Below are positions 15,385-59,226 of a DNA stretch of 64,000 nucleotides, one piece after another. The notes under the pieces were generated by a model. The model was not told the origin of the DNA, did no database searches, and saw nothing but the letters and a program-made list of their open reading frames with translations. Location of the stretch: contig CAZAOV010000007.1 in the NCBI GenBank assembly GCA_964486995.1, positions 699 through 64,698 of the forward strand, given 5' to 3'. A program made the position numbers and the translations under genes. Every line of letters starts with the position of its first letter. Within the stretch, counting starts at the first letter, position 1. Origin of the DNA: an uncultured Gammaproteobacteria bacterium. Its GTDB lineage: Bacteria > Patescibacteriota > Patescibacteriia > SG8-24.

Positions 15385-15408
15385 TCGAATCAGATTTCAC
15401 GACTATCT

Positions 15409-15798: not shown

Positions 15799-15810
15799 AA
15801 TTTTTTTGAT

Positions 15811-16206
15811 ATGCCAGAAGGCGACGGAAAAATTGAGGTAATGATTGTCGAGGACGATATGTTCCTACGAAAGATTTTGGCGAATAAATTCGGTAGGGAG
15901 GGCTTTGAGGTGCGTACCGCAGCTAACGGTGAGGAAGCCATAAATATGTTACGCAAACAAATTCCGTCTTTGCTGGTGTTGGACTTGATAATGCCAAAGA
16001 TGAGCGGTTTTGATGTTTTGGCAGAGGTGCGGGCAGATTCGAAGATGGCAGATCTTCCGGTCGTTGTGCTTTCCAACCTCAGCCAGGAAGAGGACATAGC
16101 TCGAGTCAAGGAAATGGGGGCGCTGAGCTTCCTGTCCAAGGCCGATAATTCCATCAATTATATCGTGTCTCAAATAAAGGAAGAGTACGCCAAGATAGCT
16201 AAATAG
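15811..16206 (+). CDS. Single-domain (receiver-only) response regulator, CheY/PilG-like
   Basis: VMIVEDDMFLR...LLVLDLIMPKMSGFDVL...K; 131 aa with no output domain. Confidence 0.85.
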   Translation: MPEGDGKIEVMIVEDDMFLRKILANKFGREGFEVRTAANGEEAINMLRKQIPSLLVLDLIMPKMSGFDVLAEVRADSKMADLPVVVLSNLSQEEDIARVKEMGALSFLSKADNSINYIVSQIKEEYAKIAK

Positions 16207-17919: not shown

Positions 17920-17945
17920 AGGCTAGAGACATAAATTCAGGAGGA

Positions 17946-19253: not shown

Positions 19254-19769
19254 TTGGACGCTCATACGCTTCAACGCTCACATGTTTTTATGTTCAATCA
19301 GGTTTCAAAAAACGGCAAGCAATATTTTGGCTTCACGGTCATCGAGGTCATAATAGCTGTTGCTCTATTGTTGAGCGCAGCGGCTTTGTCGGTTCCGTTT
19401 ATGTCCAGCACCCTATCGAGGAATGAACTGGATGTGGCATTACAGCGGGCTGTTGACATGCTAAACGAGGCCCGTTCATCCGCCTTCAATGGACTCGGCG
19501 GCGGTGAATTTGGGGTGCGTTTTGAGTCTGGGGCAGTGGTCTTTTTTTCCGGCGACACTTATTCAGCGGTTGATCCAGATAACGTTGATTTTATCTTGCC
19601 TGGATTTGTGAGCATTACCGACATAAGCATCAGCGGCGGCGGATCCGAGATTGTTTTCGAGAGCGTTTCCGGCGCGCCGACACAAACCGGCTCCGTCGAA
19701 TTCACTGATTCTTCCGGCGAGACAAAAACCGTGTCGGTAAACACTCACGGCACGGTGAATTTGGAATAA
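19254..19769 (+). CDS. Prepilin-type (class III signal peptide) pseudopilin/minor pilin
   Basis: Leader ...KNGKQYFG followed by FTVIEVIIAVALLL (G-1, E+5, hydrophobic helix). The real start is probably the internal ATG (MFNQ..., ~19296). Confidence 0.7.
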   Translation: MDAHTLQRSHVFMFNQVSKNGKQYFGFTVIEVIIAVALLLSAAALSVPFMSSTLSRNELDVALQRAVDMLNEARSSAFNGLGGGEFGVRFESGAVVFFSGDTYSAVDPDNVDFILPGFVSITDISISGGGSEIVFESVSGAPTQTGSVEFTDSSGETKTVSVNTHGTVNLE

Positions 19770-19771
19770 CC

Positions 19772-25700: not shown

Positions 25701-28395
25701 TGGCGATGATGATTACGTTTATACGGGGCAGTTTACGATCAGCAATTATGGTATCCACGGATTTATTTTCCGTTATCAGGATGACAGTAATTTTTGGCGT
25801 CTAGTGTTTGAGTTTGGTCAGGTTCTGATTCGCGGTCAGGTGGGTGGGTCCTGGACAAATGCGGCCGGGCAGTCGGTAATCAATTGGTCTCCGACCGTCG
25901 GCACGACGTATAACATCAAGGTCAAAGCTGAAGGCAGTCAACTGGACGGAAAGTGGTGGGAAGACGGGACCGCCGAACCGGGTTCGTGGATGATTTCTGC
26001 CAATGACAGTCAGATATTGACTGGCTATGCGGGCGTGAGCAATCGTGACGGCACGCAGTTCGATAGTCTGTCCGTCACTACCTGCCTGACCGATCCGGTG
26101 ACTGGGTCGGTCACCGTAATTGACCCGAACGGCAATGATTCACTTATTGCTGGTTCGAACTATGAAATCCTGTGGAGCTCGTCGGACACTTCTGGCAATG
26201 TCGATATTGAATATTCGACCGACAATTTCGTTGCCGACATTAATTCGATTGCCAACAGCACGGCAGATGACGGAAGCTACTTTTGGACCGTTCCAAGCCT
26301 GGACAGTTCAACGGTGCGCGTGCGCATCAGCGACTCGGCCGATGCTGGCGTGACCGACACAAGCGACGCGGACTTCGAGATTTCCATGCCGCCGAGCGTC
26401 ACCGTAACCGACCCGAACGGCGGCGAGTCGCTCACTTCCGGTGACAGTTTTAATATCACCTGGATATCCATTAATTCCTCCGGATTCGTAGATATCGAGT
26501 ATTCAACCGACAATTTTGTTACCGATATAAATACGATAGTTGCCGGAACAGCCGATGACGGAATCCATGCCTGGAACGTGCCTGCTCTGGACAGTTCCAC
26601 CGTGCGCGTGCGCGTAACCGATGCGTTCTACGCCGGAATTGCAGATACGAGCGACGCGGACTTCAGCATCGCCACGCCGAGCACTGTCACGGTGACCGAC
26701 CCGAACGGCGGCGAGTCGCTCACTTCCGGTGACAGCTTTAATACCACCTGGACCTCCAACAACACCTCGGGCACGGTTGATATCGAATACTCCACCGACA
26801 ACTTTGTGTCCGATATCAATTCGATAGTTGTCGGAACCCTCGATGACGGTCTTTATGGCTGGACCGTTCCGAGTTTGGACAGCTCGACCGTACGCGTACG
26901 CGTTACCGACTCGGCCGATCCCGGCGTGACCGACACCAGCGACGCGGACTTCAGCATCGCCACGCCGAGCACTGTCACCGTGACCGACCCGAACGGCGGC
27001 GAGTCGTTAAACTCACAAGATTCATTCGACGTTACCTGGACCTCCAACAACACCTCGGGCACGGTTGATATCGAATACTCCACCGACAACTTTGTGTCCG
27101 ATATCAATTCGATAGTTGTCGGAACCCTCGATGACGGTCTTTATGGCTGGACCGTTCCGAGTTTGGACAGCTCGACCGTACGCGTACGCGTTACCGACTC
27201 GGCCGATCCCGGCGTGACCGACACCAGCGACGCGGACTTCAGCATCTCTACACAACCTACGTTCCGGGTAACCGAATACTACGTCACCAACAGTCAATTC
27301 AATCAGCAATCATACACCCTAACGCTCGACCAGGACTTAGAATCAAATTATTTTGTTATCGTCCGCGGCAGTGACGGTGACGGCAGCGGCAATGGCCATC
27401 GTGGTCCGGACGAGAACTACGCGGCATTGGCGGCTGACCCGTTTGGTACCGGTGATTTGAGCGATTCCGGTGCGTCAAACCAGATTGATCTTACCAGGCG
27501 GGGTGACACAGATGGCTGGCAGGGGGTAGTCACCGTAGTTGAATGCTTGGGCGACTGCGACTCGTCTGGCTTCGAACTGATTGGAGTCGAAGAGGTTACA
27601 CATTCTGGCAGTAGTACCGGCGGACAAGATACGTCCTCAGTTTCCTGGACCGACATCAATCAAATCATGCTGGTCGGCGGATTTTATGGCGCTGGCTGCA
27701 ACACCGATGAAAGCGACCATGTAGATCATGTCAGTTGCTTCGCCAAGATTTGGCCGGGCGGAACCAATGAAATTAATTGGTCCAGAGATGTCGGCGGCAA
27801 TAGTTCCCTGAGCACGGCCACCAGCACGGTCATGGTCATGGAGTGGGGGAGCGAATGGAACGTCCAGCGAGTTGATGTTGTCGGCAATAACGGCGGCAAC
27901 GGCGCGGACAGCACCGGCGAATACGACACGGCCAGCATCTCACCGGTGGCTCGGGTCAACACCTGGGTTTGGGGAACCGGTCACGTGGACGATGACGGTA
28001 TCGGCGATTCGGCCGAGGGGTCATTGGTTACGCTGGGCAACGGCGTGAACCAAAACGCCACCGAGTCGCAAGTAGCCGTAGGCAGTGAATACGGTGACGA
28101 CAAGGACTATGTGGTATATGCGCTAACGCACCCAGGCCTAGCGGTAGATTATTTCTTCAAGACCGACGGTCAAAGAGGCGATTTAACCAATGACGCGTCG
28201 GTTGATTCGGCGCCGGCCGGCAGTCGTATGGCGTTGGCCTATAACGGCTGTAACGGCACGGGACATGCTTATCCGAGGCCGATATTCTCGGCGCGATATT
28301 TATCGGACACGTTTATCCGCATGGAGCGGCTTCGGTCCGGTCAGGCATTTCCAGCTTGGATTCAGGGCATCGACTTTAGCGAGATAAAACATTAG
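22729..28395 (+). CDS. Giant pilin-like protein (~1888 aa): prepilin N-terminus; domains A-B, then A', a LamG/ConA-like domain, 4 tandem ~96 aa Ig-like repeats, and B'
   Basis: Start MKRAKQNNNRG/IALLELIIYLGLLGFV (class III signal). ORF track begins further upstream at 22588 inside the previous gene. Internal duplication of a ~190 aa domain (YRFFANDDSTDVGAPLAAQD... x2) and a ~370 aa domain (FRVTEYY...AWIQGIDFS x2). WRLVFEFGQVLIRG region consistent with a LamG-like fold. Confidence 0.8.
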   Translation: MKRAKQNNNRGIALLELIIYLGLLGFVLSAMVMFSVEFAATHAKSAALAESARNTKFAVTRIAYEVRRAESIDYDNSTLDTSPSVLTLETSNPSTNPTVISVVENQLMMSQGGGADIPLTPSQVEVEDFTIINVADTTRSRSIRVALTLGIVESGSLEEFSGVTSYMTTVRVWKDDGYNTEGTPPTPTPTYGQSAYRFFANDDSTDVGAPLAAQDSAAALSSDGNPFRLRMMVDVDTATVATSAASFKLQFAEKSGACDTYFVGESYEDVTAISDIAYNDNSPSDGVALNANANDPVRAGRTSVAQTYEEANNLTNSNQILAGQTGLWDFALIDNDGTDEKEYCFRLVHSSDSQLNDYSVVPEISTAAGSTTDVFRVTEYYITAGEFSGDTYDLTLDQALASNYFTIIRGSDGSGTGGGNRGPDENYVSLTADPFGTGELVPSSGSDVLQLTRHNSVDGWQGVVTVAECLGNCSTSGFELLDVRRVVHSGTSTGGTETAGASWSDIDQVMLLGGYNGAGCDSIETDSGSHHSCHVRLWPSGSNQIFWTRNSLGGLMTATSTVQVLEWGSDWTVQRRTVTGSSGGDGADQLTEYDRTAISSVNRDATWVWGTGHTSESGTGDSAEASLITLGDGVNLNSSESWVSVGQEVDWANKEFEVYALTHPSLMVDYRFKPDGNESDLTYDQAVNSATAGLRMSVAYNGSDGSGSQYPRPIFSTRYASDTSVRMERRRVGAEFPAWIQGIDFSNIMAGGGPPPSATLTQSAYRIFDNDDSTDVGAPLAAQDTAATLTANESEFRLRYLLGIDTFGLSMSGESLKLQYATKSGTCDTAFADESYADVTGATAIAFADNSPSDGVALTENANDPVSGGRTTIAQTYEENNNHTNTTAIANGEAGLWDFALVDNDGLNAADYCLRVVRSDGSLLDTYSVIPEVSTVSGCGVIFSDDFEDGDASDWVHTWDSGVDWNVVDVGGNNVYENTSSTYSQTQAPSFGDDDYVYTGQFTISNYGIHGFIFRYQDDSNFWRLVFEFGQVLIRGQVGGSWTNAAGQSVINWSPTVGTTYNIKVKAEGSQLDGKWWEDGTAEPGSWMISANDSQILTGYAGVSNRDGTQFDSLSVTTCLTDPVTGSVTVIDPNGNDSLIAGSNYEILWSSSDTSGNVDIEYSTDNFVADINSIANSTADDGSYFWTVPSLDSSTVRVRISDSADAGVTDTSDADFEISMPPSVTVTDPNGGESLTSGDSFNITWISINSSGFVDIEYSTDNFVTDINTIVAGTADDGIHAWNVPALDSSTVRVRVTDAFYAGIADTSDADFSIATPSTVTVTDPNGGESLTSGDSFNTTWTSNNTSGTVDIEYSTDNFVSDINSIVVGTLDDGLYGWTVPSLDSSTVRVRVTDSADPGVTDTSDADFSIATPSTVTVTDPNGGESLNSQDSFDVTWTSNNTSGTVDIEYSTDNFVSDINSIVVGTLDDGLYGWTVPSLDSSTVRVRVTDSADPGVTDTSDADFSISTQPTFRVTEYYVTNSQFNQQSYTLTLDQDLESNYFVIVRGSDGDGSGNGHRGPDENYAALAADPFGTGDLSDSGASNQIDLTRRGDTDGWQGVVTVVECLGDCDSSGFELIGVEEVTHSGSSTGGQDTSSVSWTDINQIMLVGGFYGAGCNTDESDHVDHVSCFAKIWPGGTNEINWSRDVGGNSSLSTATSTVMVMEWGSEWNVQRVDVVGNNGGNGADSTGEYDTASISPVARVNTWVWGTGHVDDDGIGDSAEGSLVTLGNGVNQNATESQVAVGSEYGDDKDYVVYALTHPGLAVDYFFKTDGQRGDLTNDASVDSAPAGSRMALAYNGCNGTGHAYPRPIFSARYLSDTFIRMERLRSGQAFPAWIQGIDFSEIKH
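26746..27240 (+). repeat. Near-identical ~288 bp tandem repeat inside the giant pilin (Ig-like repeats 3 and 4), ~210 bp of perfect nucleotide identity
   Basis: acctggacctccaacaacacctcgggcacggttgatatcgaatactccaccgac...gacttcagcatc occurs twice, 288 bp apart. Repeats 1-2 (26390..26690) are more diverged. Confidence 0.8.
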
Positions 28396-28397
28396 AT

Positions 28398-28820
28398 ATG
28401 ATAATTATCAAACCAGCGCAAAATACTGATAGGGGAGCCGTCGCTTTGATTACGGTAATTGTTTTAGGCTCGTTACTGCTTATACTCGGTCTGTCCGCTT
28501 CTTACGTTGGGCAGACAGAAATAATTATCGCCGGCCAGATGGACCGGGGTCAGCATGCTCGCACTCTAGCCGCTACATGTATTGAGGAAGCGCTGCATCG
28601 TCTCAAACTAGATGATGCATATGCAGGAGGAACGATTGATATTGATTCCGATTCTTGCGCAGTTACGATTATCGGCGCCGGTTCATCACGTACTATCACC
28701 AGCACGGCCATCTCGGGGGATTTTACCAAGAACATCGAAGTCATCGCTTCCCTAAGGCAAAATGCCGATACCGATGCCTCGGCATGGAACATAGATTCGT
28801 GGACTGAGTTAGACCCGTAA
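28398..28820 (+). CDS. PilX-N-like minor pilin
   Basis: N-terminus ...TDRGAVALITVIVLGSLLLILGLSASY resembles the PilX_N family (RGxALxxxLLLLxxLxxLG); 140 aa. Confidence 0.55.
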   Translation: MIIIKPAQNTDRGAVALITVIVLGSLLLILGLSASYVGQTEIIIAGQMDRGQHARTLAATCIEEALHRLKLDDAYAGGTIDIDSDSCAVTIIGAGSSRTITSTAISGDFTKNIEVIASLRQNADTDASAWNIDSWTELDP

Positions 28821-29086
28821 ATAGAAGATAAAAATGTCGTTTATCTCCCAAATCACCTGAGAGGCACAGAAGCGCAAAATAAAGACATTATAAAGCAGAG
28901 GGATGGTGGGGCGCGAGTTCACACACATAAGCTCTATCGCCTCTTTGCCCTCTGACCCTCAGGCTATTTTTTGCCAAGCTAAGCTATTACCGGTATCTAC
29001 ATACACACAGTTTATTTTAAATATGTTACTATAGTAGTGGCGAGCTATTTGATGCCAGTTTTTGGCACATAACGCCTTCATATTTT

Positions 29087-31732
29087 ATGTCCGGCAAGGC
29101 AGTTGGAATTGATATATCAGATCGCTCAATTGAGATGGTTTCCATGCGGGAAAAAAGCGCTGGAACCATTGATGGTGTGACACGAGCCGAACTACCTGCG
29201 GGGATAATTTCGCGAGGTAAGATTGAGGATTACGATGAGCTGTTGAAGCGAGTCAAGAGTCTTCTAGATGATTTATTTGGTGCTCGTCGTGGCAAGATTG
29301 ATGTGGGCATGGCCATGACAGAAACGATGGTCTATTCCAAAATATTCAGAATGCCGCAGGGGTTGGGCTACGATCATTATGCGAAAGCGCTGGAAATAGA
29401 GGCAATAGAGGAATTTCCGTATGACTTAACTTCGCAAGTGATTTCGAATTTTGTGCTGGTTCGGTCTGGAGAGAAAGAACGGGAATTTTTGTATGCCACC
29501 GTGGATGCGGATAAGGCTAAAGAATACGAACGCCTGCTGAACGAAGCTGGAGCTAACCCCGTTTTCTTTGAGCCTGAATCATCGGCTCTAGCCAGAGCGG
29601 CGGTGTCGCCAGAGCTATCATCGGACGCGCTTTTAGCTGATATCGGAGCGCGCACCACGATGCTGGTTGCCCTAGGAGTTAAAGGCGAGCCGGTGCTGAG
29701 TTCAGCAGTTCCTGTAGGTGGTGACATTTTGACTACAGAGATTGAGAAAAGACTCAACGTTACACTCGCGGAAGCGGAGGCAGTAAAGAGACGCAGTGGA
29801 TTTGACGCCAGCGTGGATGATGGGCGCGTCATGTTGATTCTGCAGAACCCGTTCGATGAAATAGCTAAAGAGATTAAGATAACCATCAATTATTATCACG
29901 AAAAGACTGGACGCGACATTAATAAGATAGTCTTGGCTGGCGGCACGTCGCTACTGCCCAAGGTTATGGATTACATGTCATCGCGCTTTGCGGACGTAGA
30001 AGTTTCTCGAGCCGATCCGCTAAAGAGGTTTGCGGTTAAACCGAACATAAAGCTACCACCAAAATTCAAACAAGAGGCCGTCTTATATTCGACGGCAGTC
30101 GGACTGGCAGTTCGTGCGGCGGGCTCGCGCGACCGTCCCGGTCCTAACTTACTACCGTCCGCTCGCGGCCACGGTCGCAAAAGCGGAGGGTTCATAAATT
30201 TCATTCGTTCTCTATTTAAAAAGCCCCTTCGTCCTATGTCACCAACCAAAAAGTCACCAAGAAAAAAAGCTTCACCCAAGAAGTCAATTAAGAAAAAGAC
30301 AGCTACCAAGAAGAAATCTTCTAAGCCCTCCTCGTCCAAGAAGGCTGCTATCGATTTTGATGCCAAAAAGGAGGAAATAAAAGAAGAGGAGGAGGTGGTT
30401 GAGACCACGGCCACGCAAGAGCCTGAAGAGGCGAAGGGCGATGCCGCGTCTGGTTTGAATGCAATCGTTGAGGCTGAAGATTCGGTCGATGCCGATGAGG
30501 GTATCGTTCCAGAACGAGATTTTGGTATGGGAGTTGGTGATATTTTGTCCGGTTCGTCAGAGAAAAAGGATGCCGACGAACAACTCGAGAGTGACGAGGC
30601 AGTAGATAAGGTTTCGATAGAATCGATTCTGCAGGGTCGGTCTAGTGGGGGAGCTGATGGCGTCTATGAGGACGATGAATATGGAACCGTTGAAGAGGAT
30701 CCACACCCGAAAAAGAGAAAGATTCGCTGGAGCGTAGCGATTCCGTTGGTGGTGTTCGTACTGGCCATCTTACTGGTCGCGGAAGGGGCTGGTTTGTTCG
30801 GTCGGGGCGGTTCGTCAAAGCTGTTCTCTGCAATTACGCCTTTCTTCGGAGGAGATGGAGGAAAGGAGCAAACGACTGAACCGGCTGAAACCGGACCGGT
30901 CGTTCCTTCGTTAATTTCCATGAACGTATTAATTTCCTCGGTCGAGGATGAGGAAGAAGTAGCAGTTTCGGTCGTTCCTTCGCGTATCATCGAAACTGAT
31001 GTGACCGCAACTGATTCTTTCCAGGCTACCGGCGAGGCTCCGGCTGAAGAGGCGCGTGCTGTGGGCACGATAACTGTGGTCAACGAAACATCGAACGACT
31101 ATCGCTTCGTCGCGACCACGCGCTTTTTGTCCACGGACGGCATATTGTTCCGCCTCAAGGAAGAGTCAGATATTCCGGCCAACAGCACGGCCGATGTTGA
31201 GGTGTATGCGGATGAAGTTGGTGCTTCCGGTGACATTGGTCCGTCCAGGTTCACTATTCCAGGTTTGGGCGGAGATTTGGAGCAGTACGTCTATGGACGA
31301 AGTCGAACCGCCATGACCGGTGGTAGCGGCACCGTGGCTGCAGTTAAGGAAGACGATATTGAAACCGCCCGCGCTACGCTGTTAGACCGTTTGTTTGATG
31401 AAGCGCGCGAAAATTTTAGGTCCATGATTTCGGCTGGGGAAATAGTACTTGATGATCTGATTACCTCTAATGAGTTGGACTCCACCCTGCCGGATATCGG
31501 GCAGGAAGGTACTGCGTTCGACGTGGCGCTCACAGTTCAGTTCAGCACCCTAGTGGTGCCAGAAGCGGATTTGCTGGCAAAACTAGGCGAGAAGCTTCTC
31601 GAAGAATTGCCAGAAAATGTAGTGCCGACCGACTATGAGCTGGGTGCGATGCTGTACACCGTCGAGGCATTCGACACTACCAGCGGTCGAGCAGAAATTC
31701 GCGCAGAAGCACCGGTCCAACGCATTCAATAA
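29087..31732 (+). CDS. pilM: PilM-PilN(-PilO-like) fusion: N-terminal actin-like PilM, K-rich linker, TM anchor, large extracytoplasmic C-terminal domain
   Basis: AVGIDISDRSIEMVS (PilM N-terminus), K-rich segment PTKKSPRKKASPKKSIKKK..., TM RWSVAIPLVVFVLAILLVAEGAGLFG, then a ~330 aa periplasmic-type domain. Confidence 0.8.
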   Translation: MSGKAVGIDISDRSIEMVSMREKSAGTIDGVTRAELPAGIISRGKIEDYDELLKRVKSLLDDLFGARRGKIDVGMAMTETMVYSKIFRMPQGLGYDHYAKALEIEAIEEFPYDLTSQVISNFVLVRSGEKEREFLYATVDADKAKEYERLLNEAGANPVFFEPESSALARAAVSPELSSDALLADIGARTTMLVALGVKGEPVLSSAVPVGGDILTTEIEKRLNVTLAEAEAVKRRSGFDASVDDGRVMLILQNPFDEIAKEIKITINYYHEKTGRDINKIVLAGGTSLLPKVMDYMSSRFADVEVSRADPLKRFAVKPNIKLPPKFKQEAVLYSTAVGLAVRAAGSRDRPGPNLLPSARGHGRKSGGFINFIRSLFKKPLRPMSPTKKSPRKKASPKKSIKKKTATKKKSSKPSSSKKAAIDFDAKKEEIKEEEEVVETTATQEPEEAKGDAASGLNAIVEAEDSVDADEGIVPERDFGMGVGDILSGSSEKKDADEQLESDEAVDKVSIESILQGRSSGGADGVYEDDEYGTVEEDPHPKKRKIRWSVAIPLVVFVLAILLVAEGAGLFGRGGSSKLFSAITPFFGGDGGKEQTTEPAETGPVVPSLISMNVLISSVEDEEEVAVSVVPSRIIETDVTATDSFQATGEAPAEEARAVGTITVVNETSNDYRFVATTRFLSTDGILFRLKEESDIPANSTADVEVYADEVGASGDIGPSRFTIPGLGGDLEQYVYGRSRTAMTGGSGTVAAVKEDDIETARATLLDRLFDEARENFRSMISAGEIVLDDLITSNELDSTLPDIGQEGTAFDVALTVQFSTLVVPEADLLAKLGEKLLEELPENVVPTDYELGAMLYTVEAFDTTSGRAEIRAEAPVQRIQ

Positions 31733-31809
31733 AACATAGATTATTAACTATCCATTAAGCAATTAATCGGGCATATAATTGTCCTGATGCTATAAATTAA
31801 ACAGTAAAT

Positions 31810-32400
31810 ATGAAGCGCAATAACAAAGGTTTTACCCTAGTCGAGCTCCTAATCGTCATCGGCATCATCGGTTTTCTGGCCGCAGCCATCTTGGTGGCGG
31901 TCGACCCGGTCAAGCGTATCCAGGACTCACGCAACTCCCAGCGCTGGTCAGAGGTCAACTCAATCCTGAACGCGGTGCTGAAGAAGCAGGTTGATGATCG
32001 GGCTCTGTATAACGGCGACTCAGCGGCACCCATCATCACCAGTGCCGACTATGCTCAGGTCATTGTCGAGGATGCAACCGATATAGTTTGTAATGTCGAG
32101 AGTACTCGACCCGGTTGCGATACAGCTTTGGATGTAAGCGCGGCGGACGCCGACTGCGTGGCGCAGCTTTTCGAAAATACTTCTCCGGGCACAGAACATC
32201 TTAATCCGACCTACTTGGCTGAAATGCCAACCGATCCCGGTGATGCCACCTGTCTGGATAGCGGAGACTGCACAGCGTTTGGTGACATTGTCATTGGTGA
32301 TTCGAATAGCGGTTATTATATCAAGCGAAGCACCGGCAACCGAATCGAGATTGGCGCATGTCAGCCGGAGCAGGGCGCTACCATCAGCGTCAAGCGATAG
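31810..32400 (+). CDS. pilA: Type IV major pilin (PilA-like), copy 1
   Basis: MKRNNKG/FTLVELLIVIGIIGFLAAAILVAV class III signal; 196 aa with 4 Cys in the C-terminal D-region; followed by terminator ATCCCGCTCCGTCTGAGCGGGAT-T5. Confidence 0.85.
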   Translation: MKRNNKGFTLVELLIVIGIIGFLAAAILVAVDPVKRIQDSRNSQRWSEVNSILNAVLKKQVDDRALYNGDSAAPIITSADYAQVIVEDATDIVCNVESTRPGCDTALDVSAADADCVAQLFENTSPGTEHLNPTYLAEMPTDPGDATCLDSGDCTAFGDIVIGDSNSGYYIKRSTGNRIEIGACQPEQGATISVKR

Positions 32401-32424
32401 CAATCAAATAGCGTGAATAAAAAA

Positions 32425-32453
32425 ATCCCGCTCCGTCTGAGCGGGATTTTTGT
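32425..32453 (+). terminator. Rho-independent terminator after pilin copy 1
   Basis: ATCCCGCTC-CGTCT-GAGCGGGAT followed by TTTTTGTTT. Confidence 0.65.
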
Positions 32454-32531
32454 TTACTTATGGTGTCGGACTGAAATAGATGCTAAAATATGAATACACC
32501 ATAAAGAAATCTCTCTAAACAAGATTTAAAT

Positions 32532-33137
32532 ATGAAGCGCAATAACAAAGGTTTTACCCTAGTCGAGCTCCTAATCGTCATCGGCATCATCGGTTTTCTG
32601 GCCGCAGCCATCTTGGTGGCGGTCGACCCGGTCAAGCGTATCCAGGACTCACGCAACTCCCAGCGCTGGTCAGAGGTCAACTCAATCCTGAACGCGGTGC
32701 TGAAGAAGCAGGTTGATGATCGGGCTCTGTATAATGGTGATACCGATGTCGCACCTGGCGATGGAGCCCAAATCATTACTCACGCCTCTAATGTGCAAGT
32801 CATCGTTTCGGACGTGACAGGTATAAGCTGTGACGCACCAGCAAATCGACCAGGCTGCAATCAGACAATGGATACCACGGCGGGAAGGAATTGCGTTGCT
32901 AAACTCTTTGATCCGGACACGGCCGATCAAGATGATGAGCATTTGAATCCGAACTATATGGCCGAGATGCCGCTCGATCCGGCCGAAAATGCCTGCGCCA
33001 GCGGCTGTACAACTCTTGGTAACTTAGCTATCGGAGATACCAACAGCGGCTACTACATTCACCGTACCACCGGCAACCGAATCGAGATTGGCGCCTGTCA
33101 GCCGGAGCAGTCGGCAACCATATCCGTGAAGCGCTAA
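32532..33137 (+). CDS. pilA: Type IV major pilin (PilA-like), copy 2: 5' 203 bp identical to copy 1, conserved 3' block, divergent middle
   Basis: Nucleotides 32532..32734 identical to 31810..32012. Shared 3' accggcaaccgaatcgagattggcgcNtgtcagccggagcag. Central ~120 codons homologous but highly diverged. Terminator CCCCGCCCTCACTGGGCGGGG-T4 at 33163..33188. Confidence 0.85.
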   Translation: MKRNNKGFTLVELLIVIGIIGFLAAAILVAVDPVKRIQDSRNSQRWSEVNSILNAVLKKQVDDRALYNGDTDVAPGDGAQIITHASNVQVIVSDVTGISCDAPANRPGCNQTMDTTAGRNCVAKLFDPDTADQDDEHLNPNYMAEMPLDPAENACASGCTTLGNLAIGDTNSGYYIHRTTGNRIEIGACQPEQSATISVKR

Positions 33138-40046: not shown

Positions 40047-40670
40047 ATGGCACAATGCAAAACCTGCTGCAATAAAGGCTATATCGGACTTAAGGCACAT
40101 GAGTGCTTAGGTGGGATGCCGTCGAATGATCGACCGTGTCCGGATTGCTCGGGCTCCGCGTGCGGTGATGCCTCGGACAAATACCGACTGGTGAAGCTGG
40201 GGGGCTATAGGACATCAATCGATCTGCGCACACAGCTCAACCGTGCACATTGCAAAATGAATTTTATGGCTCAGGACGTGTTAGGCAACAATGTTACGGT
40301 TGATATAGCTCCGCGCATCATAGATGTTCATCTGAATTTTCTTTCGTTGGCTGACCTCGGCATGTCCGGTAACTGTAAATACAACAATATCAATGATGTG
40401 ATATTGGCCGGACGCGAAAAGGGATCGCGATTTTTGCCACATGAAGTGGTGCCGCAGTTTCGGCTGAAGCATCGCCAACCTATCCCGTGGCGCTGGCTCA
40501 TTTTCGGCACCCCGACGTTTAGATATAATGGGAATCTCTGCGTGTTCATCATCACGAACAATGCCGAGGGGTACTCCCTGCGGGTGGTACAAGCTAGCTC
40601 GTTCTTGCTGAGTCGATATTCGCCGAACAACCATTCACCGAACGAGGTGATGACGGCATGGCGAAATTAA
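40047..40670 (+). CDS. Cys-rich protein, paralog 1: N-terminal CxxCCxKGYIGLKxHE...DRPCPDCSG zinc-knuckle (DnaJ CR-like CxxCxGxG x2) plus a unique ~165 aa C-terminal domain
   Basis: SD AGGGGAAG. N-terminus MAQCKTCCNKGYIGLKAHECLGGMPSNDRPCPDCSGSACG. No known family recognised. Confidence 0.5.
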   Translation: MAQCKTCCNKGYIGLKAHECLGGMPSNDRPCPDCSGSACGDASDKYRLVKLGGYRTSIDLRTQLNRAHCKMNFMAQDVLGNNVTVDIAPRIIDVHLNFLSLADLGMSGNCKYNNINDVILAGREKGSRFLPHEVVPQFRLKHRQPIPWRWLIFGTPTFRYNGNLCVFIITNNAEGYSLRVVQASSFLLSRYSPNNHSPNEVMTAWRN

Positions 40671-40839
40671 AGCACTAAAACCGCACCCTAGATGTGCGGT
40701 TTTTATATTTCTGGAAACTCCATGGGCTACAGCTGAATCCATGAAGGAGATTATTTAATTCGGTCGCATTGACAGCGGTATAATTTTAGTATAAATTAAC
40801 GAGTTATCCGTTTGTCCTTTTTTTGAGGTGGAGAGTGAA

Positions 40840-41448
40840 ATGTCTGCATGTGAAAGATGTTGTGGTAAGGGCTATATTGGACTGAAGCGGCATGAGACCG
40901 TCTTTGGTCCCCCGACCGACCGGCCATGTCCGGATTGCTCCGGAATCGCTAGCAGTCAAGCGGAGTCATGGTTCCCTCGCTGGAAAACGGTCATAATGTT
41001 TCGGCGATGCGATACCGAACTGCTGTACGATGATCTGGTGCGGTTGACCGGTTGCTACGTTTCGCCCAACGCACGGCGGTGGCTGCAGTCGTTGTCGTTA
41101 ACGCCCTATATGAATTCGATAAATGCGGTTCGGGTGACATCGGCTGAGCTCGGTTTTAACACCCGCTTCGTCACCACCGAAATGATTTACGACCGTGCCC
41201 GAGAGCTGGGGCTGGAGCTGTGCGATGGAGACCTGGCGGCCGAACTGCGGCTCGACTATGATGACCAGCCCACCGGAGAAACACTGCTGATTGCCATGAC
41301 ACCGATGGTTTTGCTCGCTACCGATTCGTTCGTTCTGGCTCTGCGAAACCATTCGGGCGAGCTGCAGCTAAGCTCCGACACGTGTTCGATGTCGTCCGTC
41401 TGGACACTCGATACGGAATGGGTGTTCGTGAAGCCTGGGAATAAGTAA
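40840..41448 (+). CDS. Cys-rich protein, paralog 2: same N-terminal zinc-knuckle module, unrelated C-terminal domain
   Basis: SD GAGGTGGAGAG before the ATG at 40840 (ORF track starts at a GTG at 40828). N-terminus MSACERCCGKGYIGLKRHETVFGPPTDRPCPDCSGIAS. Confidence 0.5.
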   Translation: MSACERCCGKGYIGLKRHETVFGPPTDRPCPDCSGIASSQAESWFPRWKTVIMFRRCDTELLYDDLVRLTGCYVSPNARRWLQSLSLTPYMNSINAVRVTSAELGFNTRFVTTEMIYDRARELGLELCDGDLAAELRLDYDDQPTGETLLIAMTPMVLLATDSFVLALRNHSGELQLSSDTCSMSSVWTLDTEWVFVKPGNK

Positions 41449-44154: not shown

Positions 44155-45081
44155 ATGCGAAAGGTAATCATTATTGGCTCAGGTTGCGCCGGGTATCCAG
44201 CGGCCATTTATACTGCCCGAGCTGGTCTTGAGCCTCTGGTATTGACCGGTGAAAGAATTGGCGGCTGGTTGGCCACATCCAATGAAGTCGAAAATTACCC
44301 CGGCTTTCCAGAAGATAACATAGACGGCCCGACCATCATGGAAAAAATGAAGGAGCAGGCCGAAAAGTTTGGTGCCGAGGTGCGAATTGACCGAGTTGCC
44401 GAGGTGGACTTGTCGTCCCGGCCGTTTAAAATTACGGTCGGTGATGAGGTGCTGGAAACAGAATCCCTTATAGTCTCTACCGGCACGTCAGCCCGCCGCT
44501 TGGGTGTTTCGGGTGAGGACCGGCTTTGGTCCAGGGGTGTGCATGTCTGCGCCACCTGCGATGCGCCTTTTTACCGGGATAAGGATATTGTGGTTGTTGG
44601 CGGAGGTGATACGGCCATGGAGGAGGCCCTATTCCTGTCAAAGTTCGCCCGAAGGATTCGTATTTTGGCGCGCAATAATGAAGGAGGGCTGAAAGCGTCT
44701 AAACCTTTATTGGATCGGGCAATCAAAGAAGAAAAAATTGATATTCTCTACAATACAGAAGTGACTGAAATTCTAGGCGAGAACAAGATTTCCGGTATAA
44801 AATTGATTAACAATAAGACAAATGAGGAACGGGAAGAAAAGATTGAAGGTCTTTTTTTGGCGGCTGGTCACATACCGAATACCGATATTTTCAAAGGCAA
44901 GCTCGATTTGAATGAGCAGGGATATATTTTAACCGAGCCGGACTCTACCAAAACTAGCGTGGAGGGTGTATTTGCTGCCGGTGACGTGATGGACTGGCGA
45001 TATCGACAAGCCGTAACCGCCGCTGGGTTTGGCTGTATGGCGGCACTAGAGGCGCAACGATATTTAGAAGAAAAAGAATAG
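44155..45081 (+). CDS. trxB: Thioredoxin-disulfide reductase
   Basis: GSGCAGYPAAIY FAD motif, redox-active CATCD, NADPH motif GGGDTAMEEA. Confidence 0.9.
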   Translation: MRKVIIIGSGCAGYPAAIYTARAGLEPLVLTGERIGGWLATSNEVENYPGFPEDNIDGPTIMEKMKEQAEKFGAEVRIDRVAEVDLSSRPFKITVGDEVLETESLIVSTGTSARRLGVSGEDRLWSRGVHVCATCDAPFYRDKDIVVVGGGDTAMEEALFLSKFARRIRILARNNEGGLKASKPLLDRAIKEEKIDILYNTEVTEILGENKISGIKLINNKTNEEREEKIEGLFLAAGHIPNTDIFKGKLDLNEQGYILTEPDSTKTSVEGVFAAGDVMDWRYRQAVTAAGFGCMAALEAQRYLEEKE

Positions 45082-47263: not shown

Positions 47264-48166
47264 TCATCTAGACCGTCGGGTACGACGGCGTGGCGGGGGG
47301 TTCCAGGTATAGCGCGGATGCGGACTAAGTGGCATCACCACACCGAATCGGCTCATTAACAGCCATTCATGCTTGTCGATGCCGAGCGGAGCGGCGGCGA
47401 TTCGCGCCTCCAGTCGGAATCCAGCGCCCAGTTCCACATCCAAACCCAAGGTAAAGAAAACCGTCCGTATCGTGAGGTCGTATTCAGAACTGGGCATAGC
47501 ATCGGCGAGCCGGAGCAAAGCTTCAATGCCCGGATCGGTAATTCCGATATGCAGTGCGCGTGGCAGGTGCACGTAGCGAAGCGACATCAACGGTCTCCAG
47601 CGACCCAACAACCCGCGTAACGTGAGACCAACATCGACACGATGCCACTCGTCCGTTAGGTTAACCGCCGCATTGGCCTCGTCGAGGGGAATGCCGATAT
47701 CAGCCGCAATACCGTCAAATTGGAGCGAGGCGATTTCCGGCTCGTCCGAACCGAACGGCAGTGTGACTTCGGCATAAATCGAAAAGTCTAAATAGCGCCG
47801 TTTCAGCAGCAGCACCGTAGTTCGCGCTTCAAAATATCCTCGCCACGGCATCTCAATCGTCGCGTAGAACTGCGCGTCGCGCGGCGTGAACAAATCCATG
47901 GTGGTGCGTGACAGCCCGAGCCCCATATCGATGGTGAGCCTAGAGCGCACCGACAACCGCAGCAACCACGATAGTCGCAGCTGCGTCAGGTCGATGTCGT
48001 CCGAGCCACCCAGAGTCAAATCAACTTCTTCGAGTAGCCACAGGTGCGGGCGCTGGCCCCACTCCTGAACGATTTCCGGCGTATCCGAGTCGGATGCTTC
48101 CTGAGCTTGTGCCGCACCCGCGCTCATTAATATGGTCGCCAGACTTACAGCGGCCAAACAACGCAT
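47264..48166 (-). CDS. Secreted hypothetical protein, paralog 1 of a tandem pair (signal peptide, beta-rich, possible barrel)
   Basis: SD AGGAGG. Signal peptide MRCLAAVSLATILMSAGAAQA. Shares WRG, (V/L)T(V/L)RG(F/L)(I/L)GRWRP(F/L) and YVH(M/L)P motifs with 48311..49221. Minus-strand terminator at 47202..47226. Confidence 0.55.
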   Translation of the reverse strand: MRCLAAVSLATILMSAGAAQAQEASDSDTPEIVQEWGQRPHLWLLEEVDLTLGGSDDIDLTQLRLSWLLRLSVRSRLTIDMGLGLSRTTMDLFTPRDAQFYATIEMPWRGYFEARTTVLLLKRRYLDFSIYAEVTLPFGSDEPEIASLQFDGIAADIGIPLDEANAAVNLTDEWHRVDVGLTLRGLLGRWRPLMSLRYVHLPRALHIGITDPGIEALLRLADAMPSSEYDLTIRTVFFTLGLDVELGAGFRLEARIAAAPLGIDKHEWLLMSRFGVVMPLSPHPRYTWNPPPRRRTRRSR

Positions 48167-48310: not shown

Positions 48311-49221
48311 TTACCTGCGGCCAATCTCCGGCGGGTCAATCCAGTTGTGGCGTGCCTGTGCGGTGAGCGGGATTTCGAGTACCATTCGGCCGACGAACAC
48401 CCATCCGCCATCGAGAGTTGGTGTGGCAGCCACGCGGAGTTCGATTTCGAAACCGTAGCCCAGTTCCACCTCGAAACCGATGGCGTAGTACGGATACATG
48501 AAGCTGGCATCAAACGAGCCGTTGAGTTCCGGCGCGAGCAAATCCACGAAAGACTGCAGGGTGGGGTCGAGGTTCAGCTCCAGGCGTCCGGGCATATGCA
48601 CGTACTTAATGTCGATGAATGGTCGCCAGCGACCGATGAAGCCGCGAACGGTCACACCGAATTCGGCACGATACCAACGATGGCGGACATCTACCCAGCT
48701 GCGGATGTCCTCGATGTCCATCAGACCGAGCAGTGACATCTCGTCGAAGAACTCAGCTGACTGCAGATTGGCCTCGCCGCTGCCAATCGGGAAATAAATT
48801 TCGCTGAACAGCGAAATGTCCCAATGCGGCCAGCGATACAGCACCATGCGCGCGCCACCTCCGACAATACCGCGCCACGGCACCTCGAGTTCGGCGTTTA
48901 GCGCCGCGCCTTCAGGCTCGAACAGGTGAATCTCATGGTGAATTACACCCAAAGCGAGATCGATGGTCAGACGATCGAAGAATGTGGCCCGCAATCGACC
49001 GGTCAAACCGATGTCGTAATAGTTGCAGTTTGCGTCCTCGCTCATGGTGGAATCTAACTGCAGCGCCATCGAAAGATTGAGTCGCTGTGCGCGCCAGTCC
49101 TCATCGGTATCGCCGCACGCAGTTGATTCGACTACGCAATCTATGGTGTCAGCATCTTCGGCCAGCGCTGAACCGGCCTGCAGAAAAACGAAAATTGCAC
49201 CCAGGATCGCAAGACGGTGCA
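48311..49221 (-). CDS. Secreted hypothetical protein, paralog 2 of the tandem pair
   Basis: SD AAGGAGG before MHRLAILGAIFVFLQAGSALA. ORF track extends to 49267. Minus-strand terminator AGCCGCCGATTTTTGTCAGCGGCT-T6 at ~48262..48292. Confidence 0.55.
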
Positions 49222-49618
49222 TTTGCGAACCTCCTTTATAAGGCCAATTCGCACCAACGAACCCCAATGCTACCTAACTTGATGTTTCAAAGGGCGTCAA
49301 GTGCTAAGGGATAAAGACGACATTCTGGACCGGCTGCACCACGCAGGCTGTTTCAGGTGGTCGCATATTAAATAGCGAAGCTGTGGCTTTCCTGCCGGTA
49401 CGCGGGCTGCGTTTACGTCAGGCAGGAACTTGGTGTCGCAACCGAACCGTGAATTTTGGGAGGGGTGGAACTGTAAAGAGTCAGCCTGAAGTTACTCATA
49501 AGTTTCATAAATGCATGAAGGACATTTAATGCAGGCTCCGCCTTTTAGACCAATTTAACAAACACTCTTCAAAATACCTCACCTAATCGTTATAATTGAA
49601 TCGTAATTAAGCCAGTTT

Positions 49619-57143: not shown

Positions 57144-57584
57144 ATGATTCGACTGGCGGTCCTGGCTGTACTGATGCTATTTGCATTCTCCTGCAACTGG
57201 TTCATGCCTGAGGGGCAAGTGATTAACGATGCCGAGGAATCACTTTCCTGTTCACAGCAGCCTGAGCAGGGTTGCGTTCGGTATATGTTCGTGCCGACCG
57301 AAACTGATTCGCGTGAACGACTGGCGCGCTGCTTGAGCTCGCGTGGCGTCATCCTCTATACCACCAGCTGGTGCCCGGCTTGCGACCGGCAGAAGGCTCT
57401 GTTCGGCCGACATGTCGAGCATCTCAATGAGGTGGATTGCGGTGAGCAAGGACGGCGTTGTGAAGATGCTCAGATTCGCAGTGTCCCCACTTGGACTTTT
57501 CGGGACGGTCAACGTCATGTGGGGCTGCTGTCCTTGCGGCAACTGGCTCGGCGTGCCGGTTGCTCAATCCGTGGTTTGAGGTAG
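57144..57584 (+). CDS. Exported thioredoxin-fold CxxC protein (VKOR-partner Trx-like type), paralog 1; possible lipoprotein
   Basis: SD AAGGAG. Signal MIRLAVLAVLMLFAFSC, active site TSWCPACDRQK, conserved C-terminal C...C...SVPTWTF.DG. Confidence 0.7.
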   Translation: MIRLAVLAVLMLFAFSCNWFMPEGQVINDAEESLSCSQQPEQGCVRYMFVPTETDSRERLARCLSSRGVILYTTSWCPACDRQKALFGRHVEHLNEVDCGEQGRRCEDAQIRSVPTWTFRDGQRHVGLLSLRQLARRAGCSIRGLR

Positions 57585-58018
57585 TAAAAACTCCGCTCTT
57601 CACTGGGGCGGTTTTTTGGTTCAAATTATTTATGTCGCTCGGCGATTAACAAATAACACCGGCCCTCCGGGCGATGGTGGGCATTATCCACACAGCTCGC
57701 TTGCTCGCTCATGGGGGCGGTGTTAACGTCATTAAAGCTTGTCGTGAGCGTGAACAGTTACGCACAGGTGTCCCGTGTCAGTACAACTTGAACCAGCAGC
57801 ACCGGTGGTCGGGGCAATACCCATCCGGTGCTTTTTATTTTTTTGGTAGAAGTGTATAAGAGTAAAAGACTTGAAGAAGGGCAGTAGGGCACACGCAGGC
57901 AACCGCAAACTAACCCGCCTACAATCCTGCTCCCATGCTATAGGAATTTTATTAATGTTATCGACCCGAAAATATTACTGGGGTAAACTAAATAAGCGAG
58001 AACAATCGTTAAGAATAT

Positions 58019-58492
58019 ATGAATAGCAAACGCAAGCCGAATCAGCAGCCGATTATGTTTCGAACATATCTCATTGCTGTTTTGATAGTTGTGTCCGGGG
58101 TATATGGAGCGTATCGGCTGGCGGTCAAAGATGAGGCAGAACCGGCACCAGTCGATGACGTGGCTAAGCTCGCAGACTGCCTAACAGAAAGCGGCGCCAA
58201 ACTGTACGGTACTTTTTGGTGTCCTCACTGCAATGATCAAAAGGACGCGTTTGGCGCAAACATCGGTCGGGTGACCTACATTGAATGTACTGTTGATGGT
58301 CAACGTAACGTCATGTCTGAGGAGTGCAAAGAGGCTCAAATCAGGGGCTTTCCGACTTGGATTTTCGGTGACGGAACTCAGGTGAGTGGCAAACAGCCAT
58401 TCAGGGAGCTGGCTGCTCGTAGTGGATGTGATTGGAAGCCAGGTGAAACCGAATTCAAACCGACGGTTGACGTTGTTGAAGTGGACATATAA
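58019..58492 (+). CDS. Exported thioredoxin-fold CxxC protein, paralog 2 (signal-anchor TM)
   Basis: TM FRTYLIAVLIVVSGVYGAY; GTFWCPHCNDQK; ...ECKEAQIRGFPTWIFGDG. Confidence 0.7.
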   Translation: MNSKRKPNQQPIMFRTYLIAVLIVVSGVYGAYRLAVKDEAEPAPVDDVAKLADCLTESGAKLYGTFWCPHCNDQKDAFGANIGRVTYIECTVDGQRNVMSEECKEAQIRGFPTWIFGDGTQVSGKQPFRELAARSGCDWKPGETEFKPTVDVVEVDI

Positions 58493-58561
58493 GGTAATAA
58501 ACCGCTCTAAATTTTATCGTTTAAACCGAGTGAGTGCTCGGTTTTTGCATGGAGGTGTTCA

Positions 58562-59116
58562 GTGCGGTATTTGATGATGTTTTTTCTGTTTCTTTCTGTC
58601 TCGGCTTGCGAGCCCGGTGCCGAAGATTCGGCTGTAGATGCGGGTTTTGATGGCAATGCTGAAGCTGATGTGCTGGATGACGGAGATGTCGAGCCAGATG
58701 CCGTCGAGGATTTGGATGCGGACACGGAAGAAGATACCGCACCGAATTGCGAGGCTCTCGATCAGGATTCTGAGGATGTGCATGTGCTGGCCTGCTGCCT
58801 GGCTGATCGAGGCGCGGTACTCTACCACACGTCTTGGTGCTCGTTTTGCTACATCCAGCAGCGTATGTTCGGGGAGTATTTTGAACTGCTGAATCATGTC
58901 GATTGCTGGGATGAGCACGGCGAGATACCTGAGTGTACCGAAATGGGCGTTGAAGCGTATCCGTCTTGGACGTTCGTGGTGTACGACGAGCAGACCGGCG
59001 AAGCCACTGACGACTTTTTCTTGGTGTCCGGGTTGTTGCATTTTTCCGTGCTGGCTGATTATTCCGGCTGCTACTGGCCAGAGACGGAAAGGGAACATAA
59101 TTCAGGAAAAGAGTAA
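58562..59116 (+). CDS. Exported thioredoxin-fold CxxC protein, paralog 3; lipoprotein with an acidic N-terminal linker
   Basis: GTG start after GGAGGTG. Lipobox LSVSAC. D/E-rich region. HTSWCSFCYIQQ; ...ECTEMGVEAYPSWTF. Confidence 0.65.
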   Translation: MRYLMMFFLFLSVSACEPGAEDSAVDAGFDGNAEADVLDDGDVEPDAVEDLDADTEEDTAPNCEALDQDSEDVHVLACCLADRGAVLYHTSWCSFCYIQQRMFGEYFELLNHVDCWDEHGEIPECTEMGVEAYPSWTFVVYDEQTGEATDDFFLVSGLLHFSVLADYSGCYWPETEREHNSGKE

Positions 59117-59226
59117 TCATAAAACCGAGCAATTTTGCTCGGTTTTTCTGTGTCTGGATTTTTTTATCCACAAGTCGAACCTGTTATCGTCTGTGGATAT
59201 AATTTCTGTCTGTTTATACTGAATAC

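Follow-up and report, generated by a model that had tools for sequence, protein, structure and literature searches.

The locus examined here raises the question of what three small CxxC proteins encoded side by side do, and from where they would obtain their oxidising power. The window, that is, the whole stretch of DNA analysed, comprises 64,000 nucleotides of contig CAZAOV010000007.1 (assembly GCA_964486995.1), deposited as an uncultured Gammaproteobacteria bacterium and assigned to Patescibacteriota in the GTDB lineage. The three genes, designated P1, P2, and P3, are as follows (window positions):

57144-57584, + strand: P1, 146 aa, AGGAG ribosome-binding site, predicted lipoprotein, WCPAC
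58019-58492, + strand: P2, 157 aa, signal-anchored, WCPHC, canonical family member
58562-59116, + strand: P3, 184 aa, GGAGG ribosome-binding site, GTG start, predicted lipoprotein, WCSFC

Our analysis indicated that P1-P3 are homologs of the thioredoxin-like (Trx-like) domain of VKOR, and that the link to VKOR itself is not a property of this locus. With a probability of roughly 0.7, they are stand-alone, membrane-tethered extracytoplasmic thiol:disulfide oxidoreductases, in which P2 would be a general disulfide donor needing a DsbB or VKOR encoded elsewhere, and P1 and P3 would be specialised enzymes.

A preliminary description, prepared from the letters of the DNA alone, had proposed three tandem paralogs and had assigned them to the VKOR-partner type of Trx-like domain. 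The open reading frames (ORFs) were found on the + strand, exactly where they had been placed, and the family assignment proved correct both by Protein Data Bank (PDB) sequence matches and by fold. The 146-, 157-, and 184-aa products have identical entries in a public protein collection, on one 64,895-bp NCBI contig, and independent gene calling thus agrees with the ORFs first read from the sequence. The three proteins share 32-34% pairwise identity (P1 versus P3, E 2e-18). In a phmmer search against all PDB sequences, the best match of each was the Trx-like domain of the Synechococcus VKOR (P2: 3kp8/3kp9, E 7.3e-22; P1: 3kp8, E 1.1e-9; P3: 3kp8, E 1.5e-8), with 4nv2 also among the top VKOR-domain entries matched. 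The next families appeared at E 5e-4 or worse, generic thioredoxins and glutaredoxins being orders of magnitude weaker. Because each paralog independently found the same domain first, this homology is not a matter of chance. The alignment of P2 to the full-length chain 3kp9 also took in the transmembrane (TM) helix that precedes the Trx-like domain.

Structural modeling, in which the fold comparison covered P2 and P3 while P1 was placed by its sequence matches, led to the same family. The AlphaFold2 (AF2) model of P2 (predicted local distance difference test [pLDDT], 88.6) superimposed on 3kp8 in Foldseek with a TM-score of 0.92, a root mean square deviation of 1.2 Å, and 40% identity, and that of P3 (domain pLDDT, >93) with a TM-score of 0.80; the next-best folds for both models were ordinary thioredoxins at E about 1e-3. 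Both models contain a contiguous Trx domain of ~95 residues without an inserted alpha-helical domain, and neither Pfam DSBA (PF01323) nor Thioredoxin_4 matched any of P1-P3. The absence of the helical insert and of these Pfam matches places the three proteins outside the DsbA family, although they would act like DsbA. Thioredoxin and glutaredoxin models of Pfam and NCBIfam did not match P3 and matched P1 and P2 below threshold: thioredoxin PF00085/PF13098 gave 19.7-20.3 bits for P1 and 12.6-18.6 bits for P2 against cut-offs of 23.5 and 27, glutaredoxin PF00462 gave 13-17 bits against a curated threshold of 22.9, and the NCBIfam glutaredoxin models (GlrX_YruB, GRX_bact) gave 15-26 bits against cut-offs of 88-129. 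Membership of the thioredoxin superfamily is clear, whereas membership of the thioredoxin family is not.

The active sites follow the WC(P/S)xC pattern that had been described (WCPAC in P1, WCPHC in P2, and WCSFC in P3). The conserved C-terminal block was essentially as described, except that its E-C pair occurs only in P2, being D-C in P1 and P3, and that P3 lacks the F.DG motif, where a beta-hairpin insertion stands instead. When P1-P3 were aligned with 26 homologs, the CxxC and the cis-Pro motif (P-T/S-W) were retained in every sequence, and C54, W67, C68, C71, C90, C103, P112, W114, and C137 (P2 numbering) were invariant in 29 of the 29 members. The C90/C103 pair is common to the Synechococcus domain, in which the positions of C54 and C137 are occupied by His and Tyr. 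The latter pair co-occurs: among 163 CxxC-bearing domains in the top 149 family representatives, 115 had six Cys versus 44 with four. Since the two residues are present or absent together, C54 and C137 may, on this indirect evidence, form a second structural disulfide. The extra conserved Cys pairs would fit structural disulfides, as expected in an oxidising compartment.

Export signals were consistent with such a compartment. P1 begins with MIRLAVLAVLMLFAFS up to the lipobox Cys, a short, hydrophobic signal whose lipobox (A-F-S-C) is atypical; this Cys and the following NWF are also present in the ortholog of L088 (L numbers denote homologous loci in other genomes). P2 carries a signal anchor, composed of a basic N-terminal tail and a single TM helix (hydropathy, residues ~13-36; AF2 model, helix 10-36). 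P3 begins with MRYLMMFFLFLSVSA up to the Cys of a classical lipobox (V-S-A-C), after which comes a D/E-rich linker of ~50 acidic residues; its pLDDT of about 50-60 in the AF2 model suggests that the linker is probably disordered. The lipobox pattern [LVI][ASTVI][GAS]C fitted P3 and its orthologs (VSAC, LSAC, LAAC, VSAC) and fitted P1 (AFSC) and its orthologs in L088 (AASC) and L092 (FSSC) only loosely. Of the two lipoboxes and one signal anchor originally proposed, the P2 anchor is predicted as described, the P3 lipobox fits the classical pattern, and the P1 lipobox is atypical. Every family member, among the aligned sequences and the syntenic orthologs, has an N-terminal TM helix or a signal/lipobox, and P1-P3 are predicted to face the non-cytoplasmic side of the membrane.

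These features bear directly on the annotation 'glutaredoxin' that the Joint Genome Institute (JGI) has given to two homologs, according to which P1-P3 would be cytoplasmic glutaredoxin-like reductases. The sub-threshold Pfam and NCBIfam matches to glutaredoxin and YruB-type models speak for such a reading, but all glutaredoxin and thioredoxin scores fall under the curated cut-offs, the specific best match is an extracytoplasmic domain, each member carries an N-terminal helix or signal, and the two additional Cys pairs fit an oxidising environment; a cytoplasmic reductase is thus extremely improbable. Most likely, P1-P3 are extracytoplasmic VKOR-type Trx-like enzymes that would make or repair disulfides in secreted proteins.

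The family to which they belong is widespread but unnamed, without a Pfam or NCBIfam model. An exhaustive profile search for the stand-alone family returned 5,846 cluster representatives (50% identity) at E<=1e-3 and 527 at E<=1e-30. Most of the top 150 representatives are stand-alone proteins of 120-190 aa; 2-5 tandem copies of the domain were observed in 42 of the top 149, and the dipeptides PA, SF, and PY recur in multi-domain members. Other fusions involve VKOR (P0120; Pfam PF07884), SurA/PPIase, rhodanese, and DUF192. Two representatives (P0028, P0029) contain five Trx-like domains each, and three more (P0156, P0094, P0168) are further multi-domain or fusion examples, with tandem domains or with SurA/PPIase, DUF192, or rhodanese partners. 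Some tandem Trx-like domains lack the CxxC, and tandem members often have CPYC and CPAC together, or CR[FY]C alongside CSFC, motifs that recall those of P1 and P3.

To which membrane enzyme such proteins are usually coupled was apparent from their gene neighborhoods. A scan of species-representative genomes yielded 80 loci from Patescibacteria, DPANN archaea, Acidobacteriota, and one cyanobacterium; the search pattern demanded WC[PS]HC, so the set is skewed to that motif, and some labels of third-party metagenome-assembled genomes among them (e.g., 'Gammaproteobacteria') are probably unreliable. All six-frame ORFs of these loci were examined by iterated profile searches, for which human VKORC1, E. 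coli DsbB, and a VKOR fusion protein served as seeds. A DsbB homolog lay within 10 kb in 32 of the 80 loci, mostly labelled as candidate phyla radiation (CPR), and in 31 it was immediately adjacent, downstream, and on the same strand. A VKOR homolog lay within 10 kb in 20 loci (adjacent or fused in 15), mainly labelled Acidobacteriota together with some archaeal ones. Altogether, DsbB or VKOR was adjacent or fused in 46 of the 80 loci, always on the same strand, and 6 further loci had one within 10 kb, whereas the available flanks (up to 10 kb) of the other 28 contained neither. Examples of the Trx-like gene with its adjacent partner, from the set L006-L085, are L082:9977-10931, L012:9908-10875, and L061:9767-10701.

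Pfam confirmed DsbB above its cut-off in six of six neighbors tested and VKOR in the one tested. The neighboring CPR DsbB homologs retain the CxxC, a second Cys pair, and an Arg four residues past the CxxC. This spacing is that of C44 and R48 in E. coli DsbB, of which Arg48 is a quinone-site residue. No description of the pairing between the Trx-like gene and DsbB was found in the literature searched. In this family, a small Trx-like protein habitually partners one or the other of two membrane quinone reductases, DsbB or VKOR, that are unrelated to each other. The earlier label 'VKOR-partner type' was accordingly right about the homology to the VKOR domain and too narrow about the partner (DsbB in 32 versus VKOR in 20 of the 80 loci). 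As CPR-labelled loci mostly have DsbB beside the Trx-like gene, the partner missing from our locus is as likely to be DsbB as VKOR. In L022 (9337-9867, + strand), L032 (2130-2690, - strand), and L025 (10347-11669, + strand), the Trx-like gene also adjoins genes for multi-pass membrane proteins that have a CxxC or Cys pairs, and residues 1-150 of P0101 form a multi-pass membrane segment of this kind fused to a Trx-like domain; none of these proteins matches VKOR or DsbB in Pfam, and they could represent partners of a third type.

At the locus itself, the earlier statement that no VKOR or DsbB gene lies in the window was borne out, since the same iterated profile searches that found 52 partners elsewhere gave none among the six-frame ORFs of the window. 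Pfam detected no VKOR, DsbB, DsbA, or CcdA/DsbD among its ~50 annotated ORFs, and no multi-pass ORF carrying a CxxC was present in the 64 kb. VKOR is missing from the window and from the syntenic loci of relatives, and thus neither a fusion nor an operon with VKOR occurs here. Unknown multi-TM proteins, whose genes in L001 and L088 stand between those for MBL and NDK, were considered as novel partners and rejected, having no Cys motifs and no counterpart in the window.

Such an absence leaves room for a triad that works without any partner, oxidised by oxygen, by small-molecule or host-derived oxidants, or by its own members, with P2 as the donor and P1 and P3 as a relay or isomerase. A self-contained module of this kind would suit an organism without a quinone pool. 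The partner gene is in neither the window nor the syntenic loci, and 28 of the 80 family loci are similarly devoid of one in their available flanks; three copies are present here, versus a single copy in all but one of the 80 loci (the exception, L049, has a second, non-adjacent copy). CPR genomes are mostly without electron-transport genes (PMC5220378). However, two thirds of the related loci have a quinone-type oxidase nearby, CPR homologs of DsbB are very numerous (>2,600 matches), and an absence from 64 kb says little about a whole genome. CPR genomes have a size of roughly 1 Mb. No DsbA-like enzyme is known to turn over efficiently without a dedicated oxidase, which also counts against a partner-less triad. 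We consider such a triad unlikely, and favor P2 as a donor that is re-oxidised by a DsbB or VKOR encoded outside the window.

The conservation of the triad in relatives bears on the roles of its members. The closest relatives, labelled 'Patescibacteria group bacterium' at NCBI, are syntenic (LeuRS-ComEC-MBL-NDK-[P1]-P2-P3-GATase-L28-M50-M16). P1-P2-P3 is kept in L088 and L090, P1-P2 in L092, where the contig ends, an inverted P1 followed by P2 in L091, and P2-P3 in L001 and L086/87/89. The last three constitute one locus, and a metagenome scan with the leader motif described below returned only L089, the duplicate of L086/87. As P1 is missing from L001, the triad is not obligatory; the interval from NDK to the leader block (L001:9304-9661) contains no P1 gene, which was either lost or never gained. 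P2 is CPHC in all seven syntenic loci, with orthologs that are 50-72% identical. The P1 motif is CPAC in the window, CGAC in three loci, and CGPC in one (orthologs in L088, L090, L091, and L092), whereas P3 follows C[SPT][FY]C (CSFC in two loci, CPFC, and CTYC in two loci; orthologs in L001, L086/87/89, L088, and L090), and every P3 has both a lipobox and an acidic linker. A k-mer search with P1 returned only the L088 ortholog, and P1 appears narrowly distributed as far as this search shows. In a rough neighbor-joining tree, P2 fell within the main CP(S)HC clade, and P1 and P3 formed two separate long-branched clades. By these sequence relationships, P1, P2, and P3 are separate orthologous lineages, not recent duplicates that have merely drifted.

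Substrate specialisation, which had been put forward for the three diverged copies, is compatible with such distinct conserved lineages; different redox roles (oxidase versus isomerase- or reductase-like) are indicated at least as much, because the lineages are separate and each has its own CxxC dipeptide. This suggests a triad of one general oxidase and two specialised enzymes. An alternative is a reducing role for all three proteins, or at any rate for P1 and P3, which a CcdA/DsbD-type membrane transporter, itself fed by cytoplasmic thioredoxin and thioredoxin reductase, would keep reduced. Like ResA, CcmG, and DsbC, they would then remove or rearrange incorrect disulfides or shield thiols at the cell surface. 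The CGAC of P1 orthologs, once CGPC, the thioredoxin motif, points in this direction, as does the C-x-[FY]-C of P3, reminiscent of DsbC and DsbG, whose active sites are CGYC and CPYC, respectively. The window also contains a thioredoxin-reductase-like gene (44155-45081), but this is an ordinary cytoplasmic housekeeping gene 12 kb away, Pfam annotation of the window ORFs yielded no CcdA/DsbD, and the strongly oxidising CPHC is kept in every P2 ortholog. A reducing pathway is, in our estimation, distinctly unlikely, less so than the cytoplasmic glutaredoxin role and somewhat more so than a partner-less triad.

Starting from the observed gene reality, homology, fold, predicted topology, triad conservation, and gene neighborhoods, we infer the catalytic direction, partner, substrates, and division of labor as follows. 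The N-terminal helix would hold P2 at the outer face of the membrane, where its invariant CPHC, the dipeptide of DsbA, would make it a general disulfide donor. P2 would oxidise Cys pairs of proteins emerging from Sec, possibly including the six-Cys pilins of the same contig, and would itself be left reduced. Its re-oxidation would be carried out by a quinone-linked membrane enzyme, either DsbB, the usual neighbor in CPR-labelled loci, or a VKOR homolog, which in this lineage would be encoded elsewhere in the genome and not beside P2. P1 and P3, presumably lipid-anchored, keep the fold and both structural Cys pairs with a changed CxxC dipeptide; most likely, their redox potentials would be shifted, and they would serve as specialised oxidases or as isomerase- or reductase-like proof-readers. 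The Cys-containing pilins that had been noted nearby are indeed encoded in the window, each with six Cys in the exported globular part, and are candidate substrates:

31810-32400, + strand: type IV pilin gene, first of a tandem pair, Pfam N_methyl, six Cys
32532-33137, + strand: type IV pilin gene, second of the pair, Pfam N_methyl, six Cys

These two pilins and other Cys-containing exported proteins of the contig are plausible candidate clients. Folding of CPR pilins by thiol-disulfide oxidoreductases with VKOR has already been proposed (Meheust et al. 2019, PMC6744442).

Several points weigh against this scheme. DsbB, VKOR, DsbA, and CcdA are all absent from the 64 kb and from the available flanks (<=10 kb) of the syntenic loci. 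CPR bacteria are generally reported to lack electron-transport components, which puts the terminal acceptor in question (PMC5220378). Signal peptides and lipoboxes were called by eye and hydropathy rather than with a dedicated predictor, and the AFSC lipobox of P1 is atypical. The pilin genes lie 25 kb off, a linkage of P1-P3 to the type IV pilus locus is not evident, and one P1 ortholog carries CGPC, the motif of classical, reducing thioredoxins.

The non-coding DNA of the locus was conserved to an extent that merits its own account. Its elements are as follows:

57683-57842, + strand: conserved non-coding block upstream of P2, promoter-like with a leader, recognised by nucleotide conservation in seven distinct syntenic loci
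57593-57620, + strand: intrinsic-terminator-like hairpin and T-run after P1, from a terminator scan and direct sequence reading
58526-58546, + strand: terminator-like hairpin CCGAG-TGAGTG-CTCGG and TTTTT in the P2-P3 gap, read directly and absent from the consensus terminator scan list
59125-59147, + strand: terminator-like hairpin CCGAGC-AATTTT-GCTCGG and TTTTT after P3, read directly

With a hairpin and T-run behind each of them, P1, P2, and P3 may form three separate transcription units. Orthologs of the block upstream of P2 are found at L088:9821-9981, L001:9662-9822, L087:158-322, L090:1044-1207, L091:1659-1810, and L092:965-1124. The block (nhmmer E 1e-30 to 1e-43) is better conserved than the flanking coding DNA and consists of an invariant TTATCCACA, 8 nt, a -35-like TTGCnn, an unconserved 17-nt spacer, and an extended -10-like TGnTAACGT; ~7 nt further on comes an invariant GCTTGTCGTGAGCG, followed by ~85 nt that close in a hairpin and U-run. 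A terminated, transcript-like leader of ~100 nt thus precedes every P2 ortholog, and its terminator stem, the one part with covariation, shows three compensatory pairs. The P2 start codon lies at most ~25 nt past the U-run in L088, L087, and L092, and ~170-185 nt further downstream in the window and L001. In L006 and L008, which are more distant, the Trx gene is likewise preceded by the 5' half of the block (box, -35, -10, and CTTGTCGTGAGCG). Rfam (gathering threshold and E<=1) returned nothing credible for the P1-P2 intergenic block, and RNA and alignment folding of the leader supported only the terminator hairpin and a 4-bp 5' stem (z-score, -0.45) and gave no sign of a riboswitch-like aptamer. 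In our reading, the block would be either a conserved promoter under regulation, followed by a terminated leader, or a small RNA.

The TTATCCACA box is identical to the E. coli DnaA-box consensus. Only two perfect copies occur in the window (57684-57692 and 59164-59172, both + strand), flanking P2-P3, where ~0.5 would be expected by chance; the downstream copy (59164) is paired with an inverted near-copy (59192-59200, - strand) ahead of the GATase gene, as in L090. A replication origin (oriC) was considered on account of these perfect DnaA-box sequences and judged unlikely, because cumulative GC skew shows a monotonic rise across the window and the + strand carries most of the larger ORFs to either side. 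In the boldest combination of these observations, the lineage would lack DsbB and VKOR altogether, the triad would be a quinone-independent folding module, and the box promoter with its leader would be an undescribed regulatory element. This combination is a long shot; if true, three differently poised Trx-like proteins would pass disulfides among themselves or to an external oxidant, and the TTATCCACA-box promoter and ~100-nt leader would tune this partner-less module.

Elsewhere in the window, Pfam annotation (~50 ORFs) identified housekeeping genes, a type IV pilus system, ComEC, NDK, GATase, an M50 protease, and the thioredoxin-reductase-like gene. The type IV pilus system extends over 10290-11405, 16207-19169, and 19254-33137, with a PilT-like ATPase, PilB, PilC, a PilM fusion (881 aa), the two six-Cys pilins, and several pilin-like ORFs. 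The pilus genes are preceded by those for a histidine kinase and two response regulators of a single domain each (12883-16206). The pilus region also encodes a protein of 1,935 aa (22588-28395) that has 15 Cys and a single TM helix at its N terminus and in which Pfam recognised no domain. Two adjacent paralogs on the - strand (47264-48166 and 48311-49267; 300 and 318 aa; 29% identity, E 5e-49) have signal peptides and no Pfam match. The members of another adjacent pair of paralogs on the + strand (40047-40670 and 40828-41448; 27% identity, E 2e-16) contain 9-10 Cys and, at the N terminus, a doubled CxxC resembling a zinc ribbon; Pfam matched neither.

Collectively, our findings re-annotate three 'hypothetical' or 'glutaredoxin' genes as exported disulfide oxidoreductases of a defined structural type, and indicate that the Trx module of VKOR fusions, which lacks a curated model, also exists very commonly as a protein of its own in CPR bacteria, DPANN archaea, and Acidobacteriota. 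Its pairing with DsbB or VKOR bears on the folding of surface proteins, such as pili and adhesins, and on the electron acceptor in ultra-small, largely non-respiring organisms. The conserved three-paralog set with distinct dipeptides also represents a compact natural system for the question of how the CxxC dipeptide relates to function.

P1-P3 belong to a known kind of system, extracytoplasmic oxidative protein folding, and their job within it is an ordinary one. The Trx-like domain of the Synechococcus VKOR (PDB 3KP8; full-length 3KP9, 4NV2/5/6) is the best sequence match of all three and the best fold match of P2 and P3. It shares with them a minimal Trx fold that lacks a helical insert, the F/Y-P-T-W motif with the cis-Pro, and the pair equivalent to C90/C103, and with P2 also the WCPHC site and a preceding TM helix that aligns with the P2 anchor. 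In Synechococcus, however, a covalent fusion joins the domain to the four-helix VKOR core, whereas here the genes are separate and VKOR is not nearby; P1-P3 carry the extra pair C54/C137, which the Synechococcus domain lacks, and P1 and P3 further differ from it as predicted lipoproteins with non-CPHC sites. Arabidopsis LTO1 is a VKOR fused to a Trx-like domain that acts in the thylakoid lumen, with a WCSHC-type CxxC, and forms disulfides on the non-cytoplasmic side. It belongs to the same domain family, but it is a fused, eukaryotic plastid protein.

The same job is predicted as for DsbA, MdbA, or BdbD with DsbB/BdbC or VKOR. The CPHC of P2 is the dipeptide of E. coli DsbA, and in relatives the Trx-like gene adjoins DsbB or VKOR on the same strand, like dsbA-like genes in Gram-positive bacteria; however, DsbA is defined by an inserted alpha-helical domain, which is missing from the ~95-residue domain of the P2 and P3 models. 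DsbC/DsbG and ResA/CcmG may be functional analogues of P1 and P3, as exported Trx folds with non-DsbA dipeptides (C-G/P-x-C, C-x-Y/F-C), from which P1 and P3 differ in having no DsbC-like dimerisation domain, no CcdA/DsbD seen, and homology to the VKOR-type domain. In CPR, a thiol-disulfide oxidoreductase family (fam000318), a membrane-anchored CxxC protein often beside VKOR (fam000898), has been described with a role in pilin folding (PMC6744442). DsbB adjacency is not mentioned in that study (Meheust et al. 2019), and fam000318, described as MdbA-like (DsbA-type), shares with P1-P3 the same organisms and the same proposed role.

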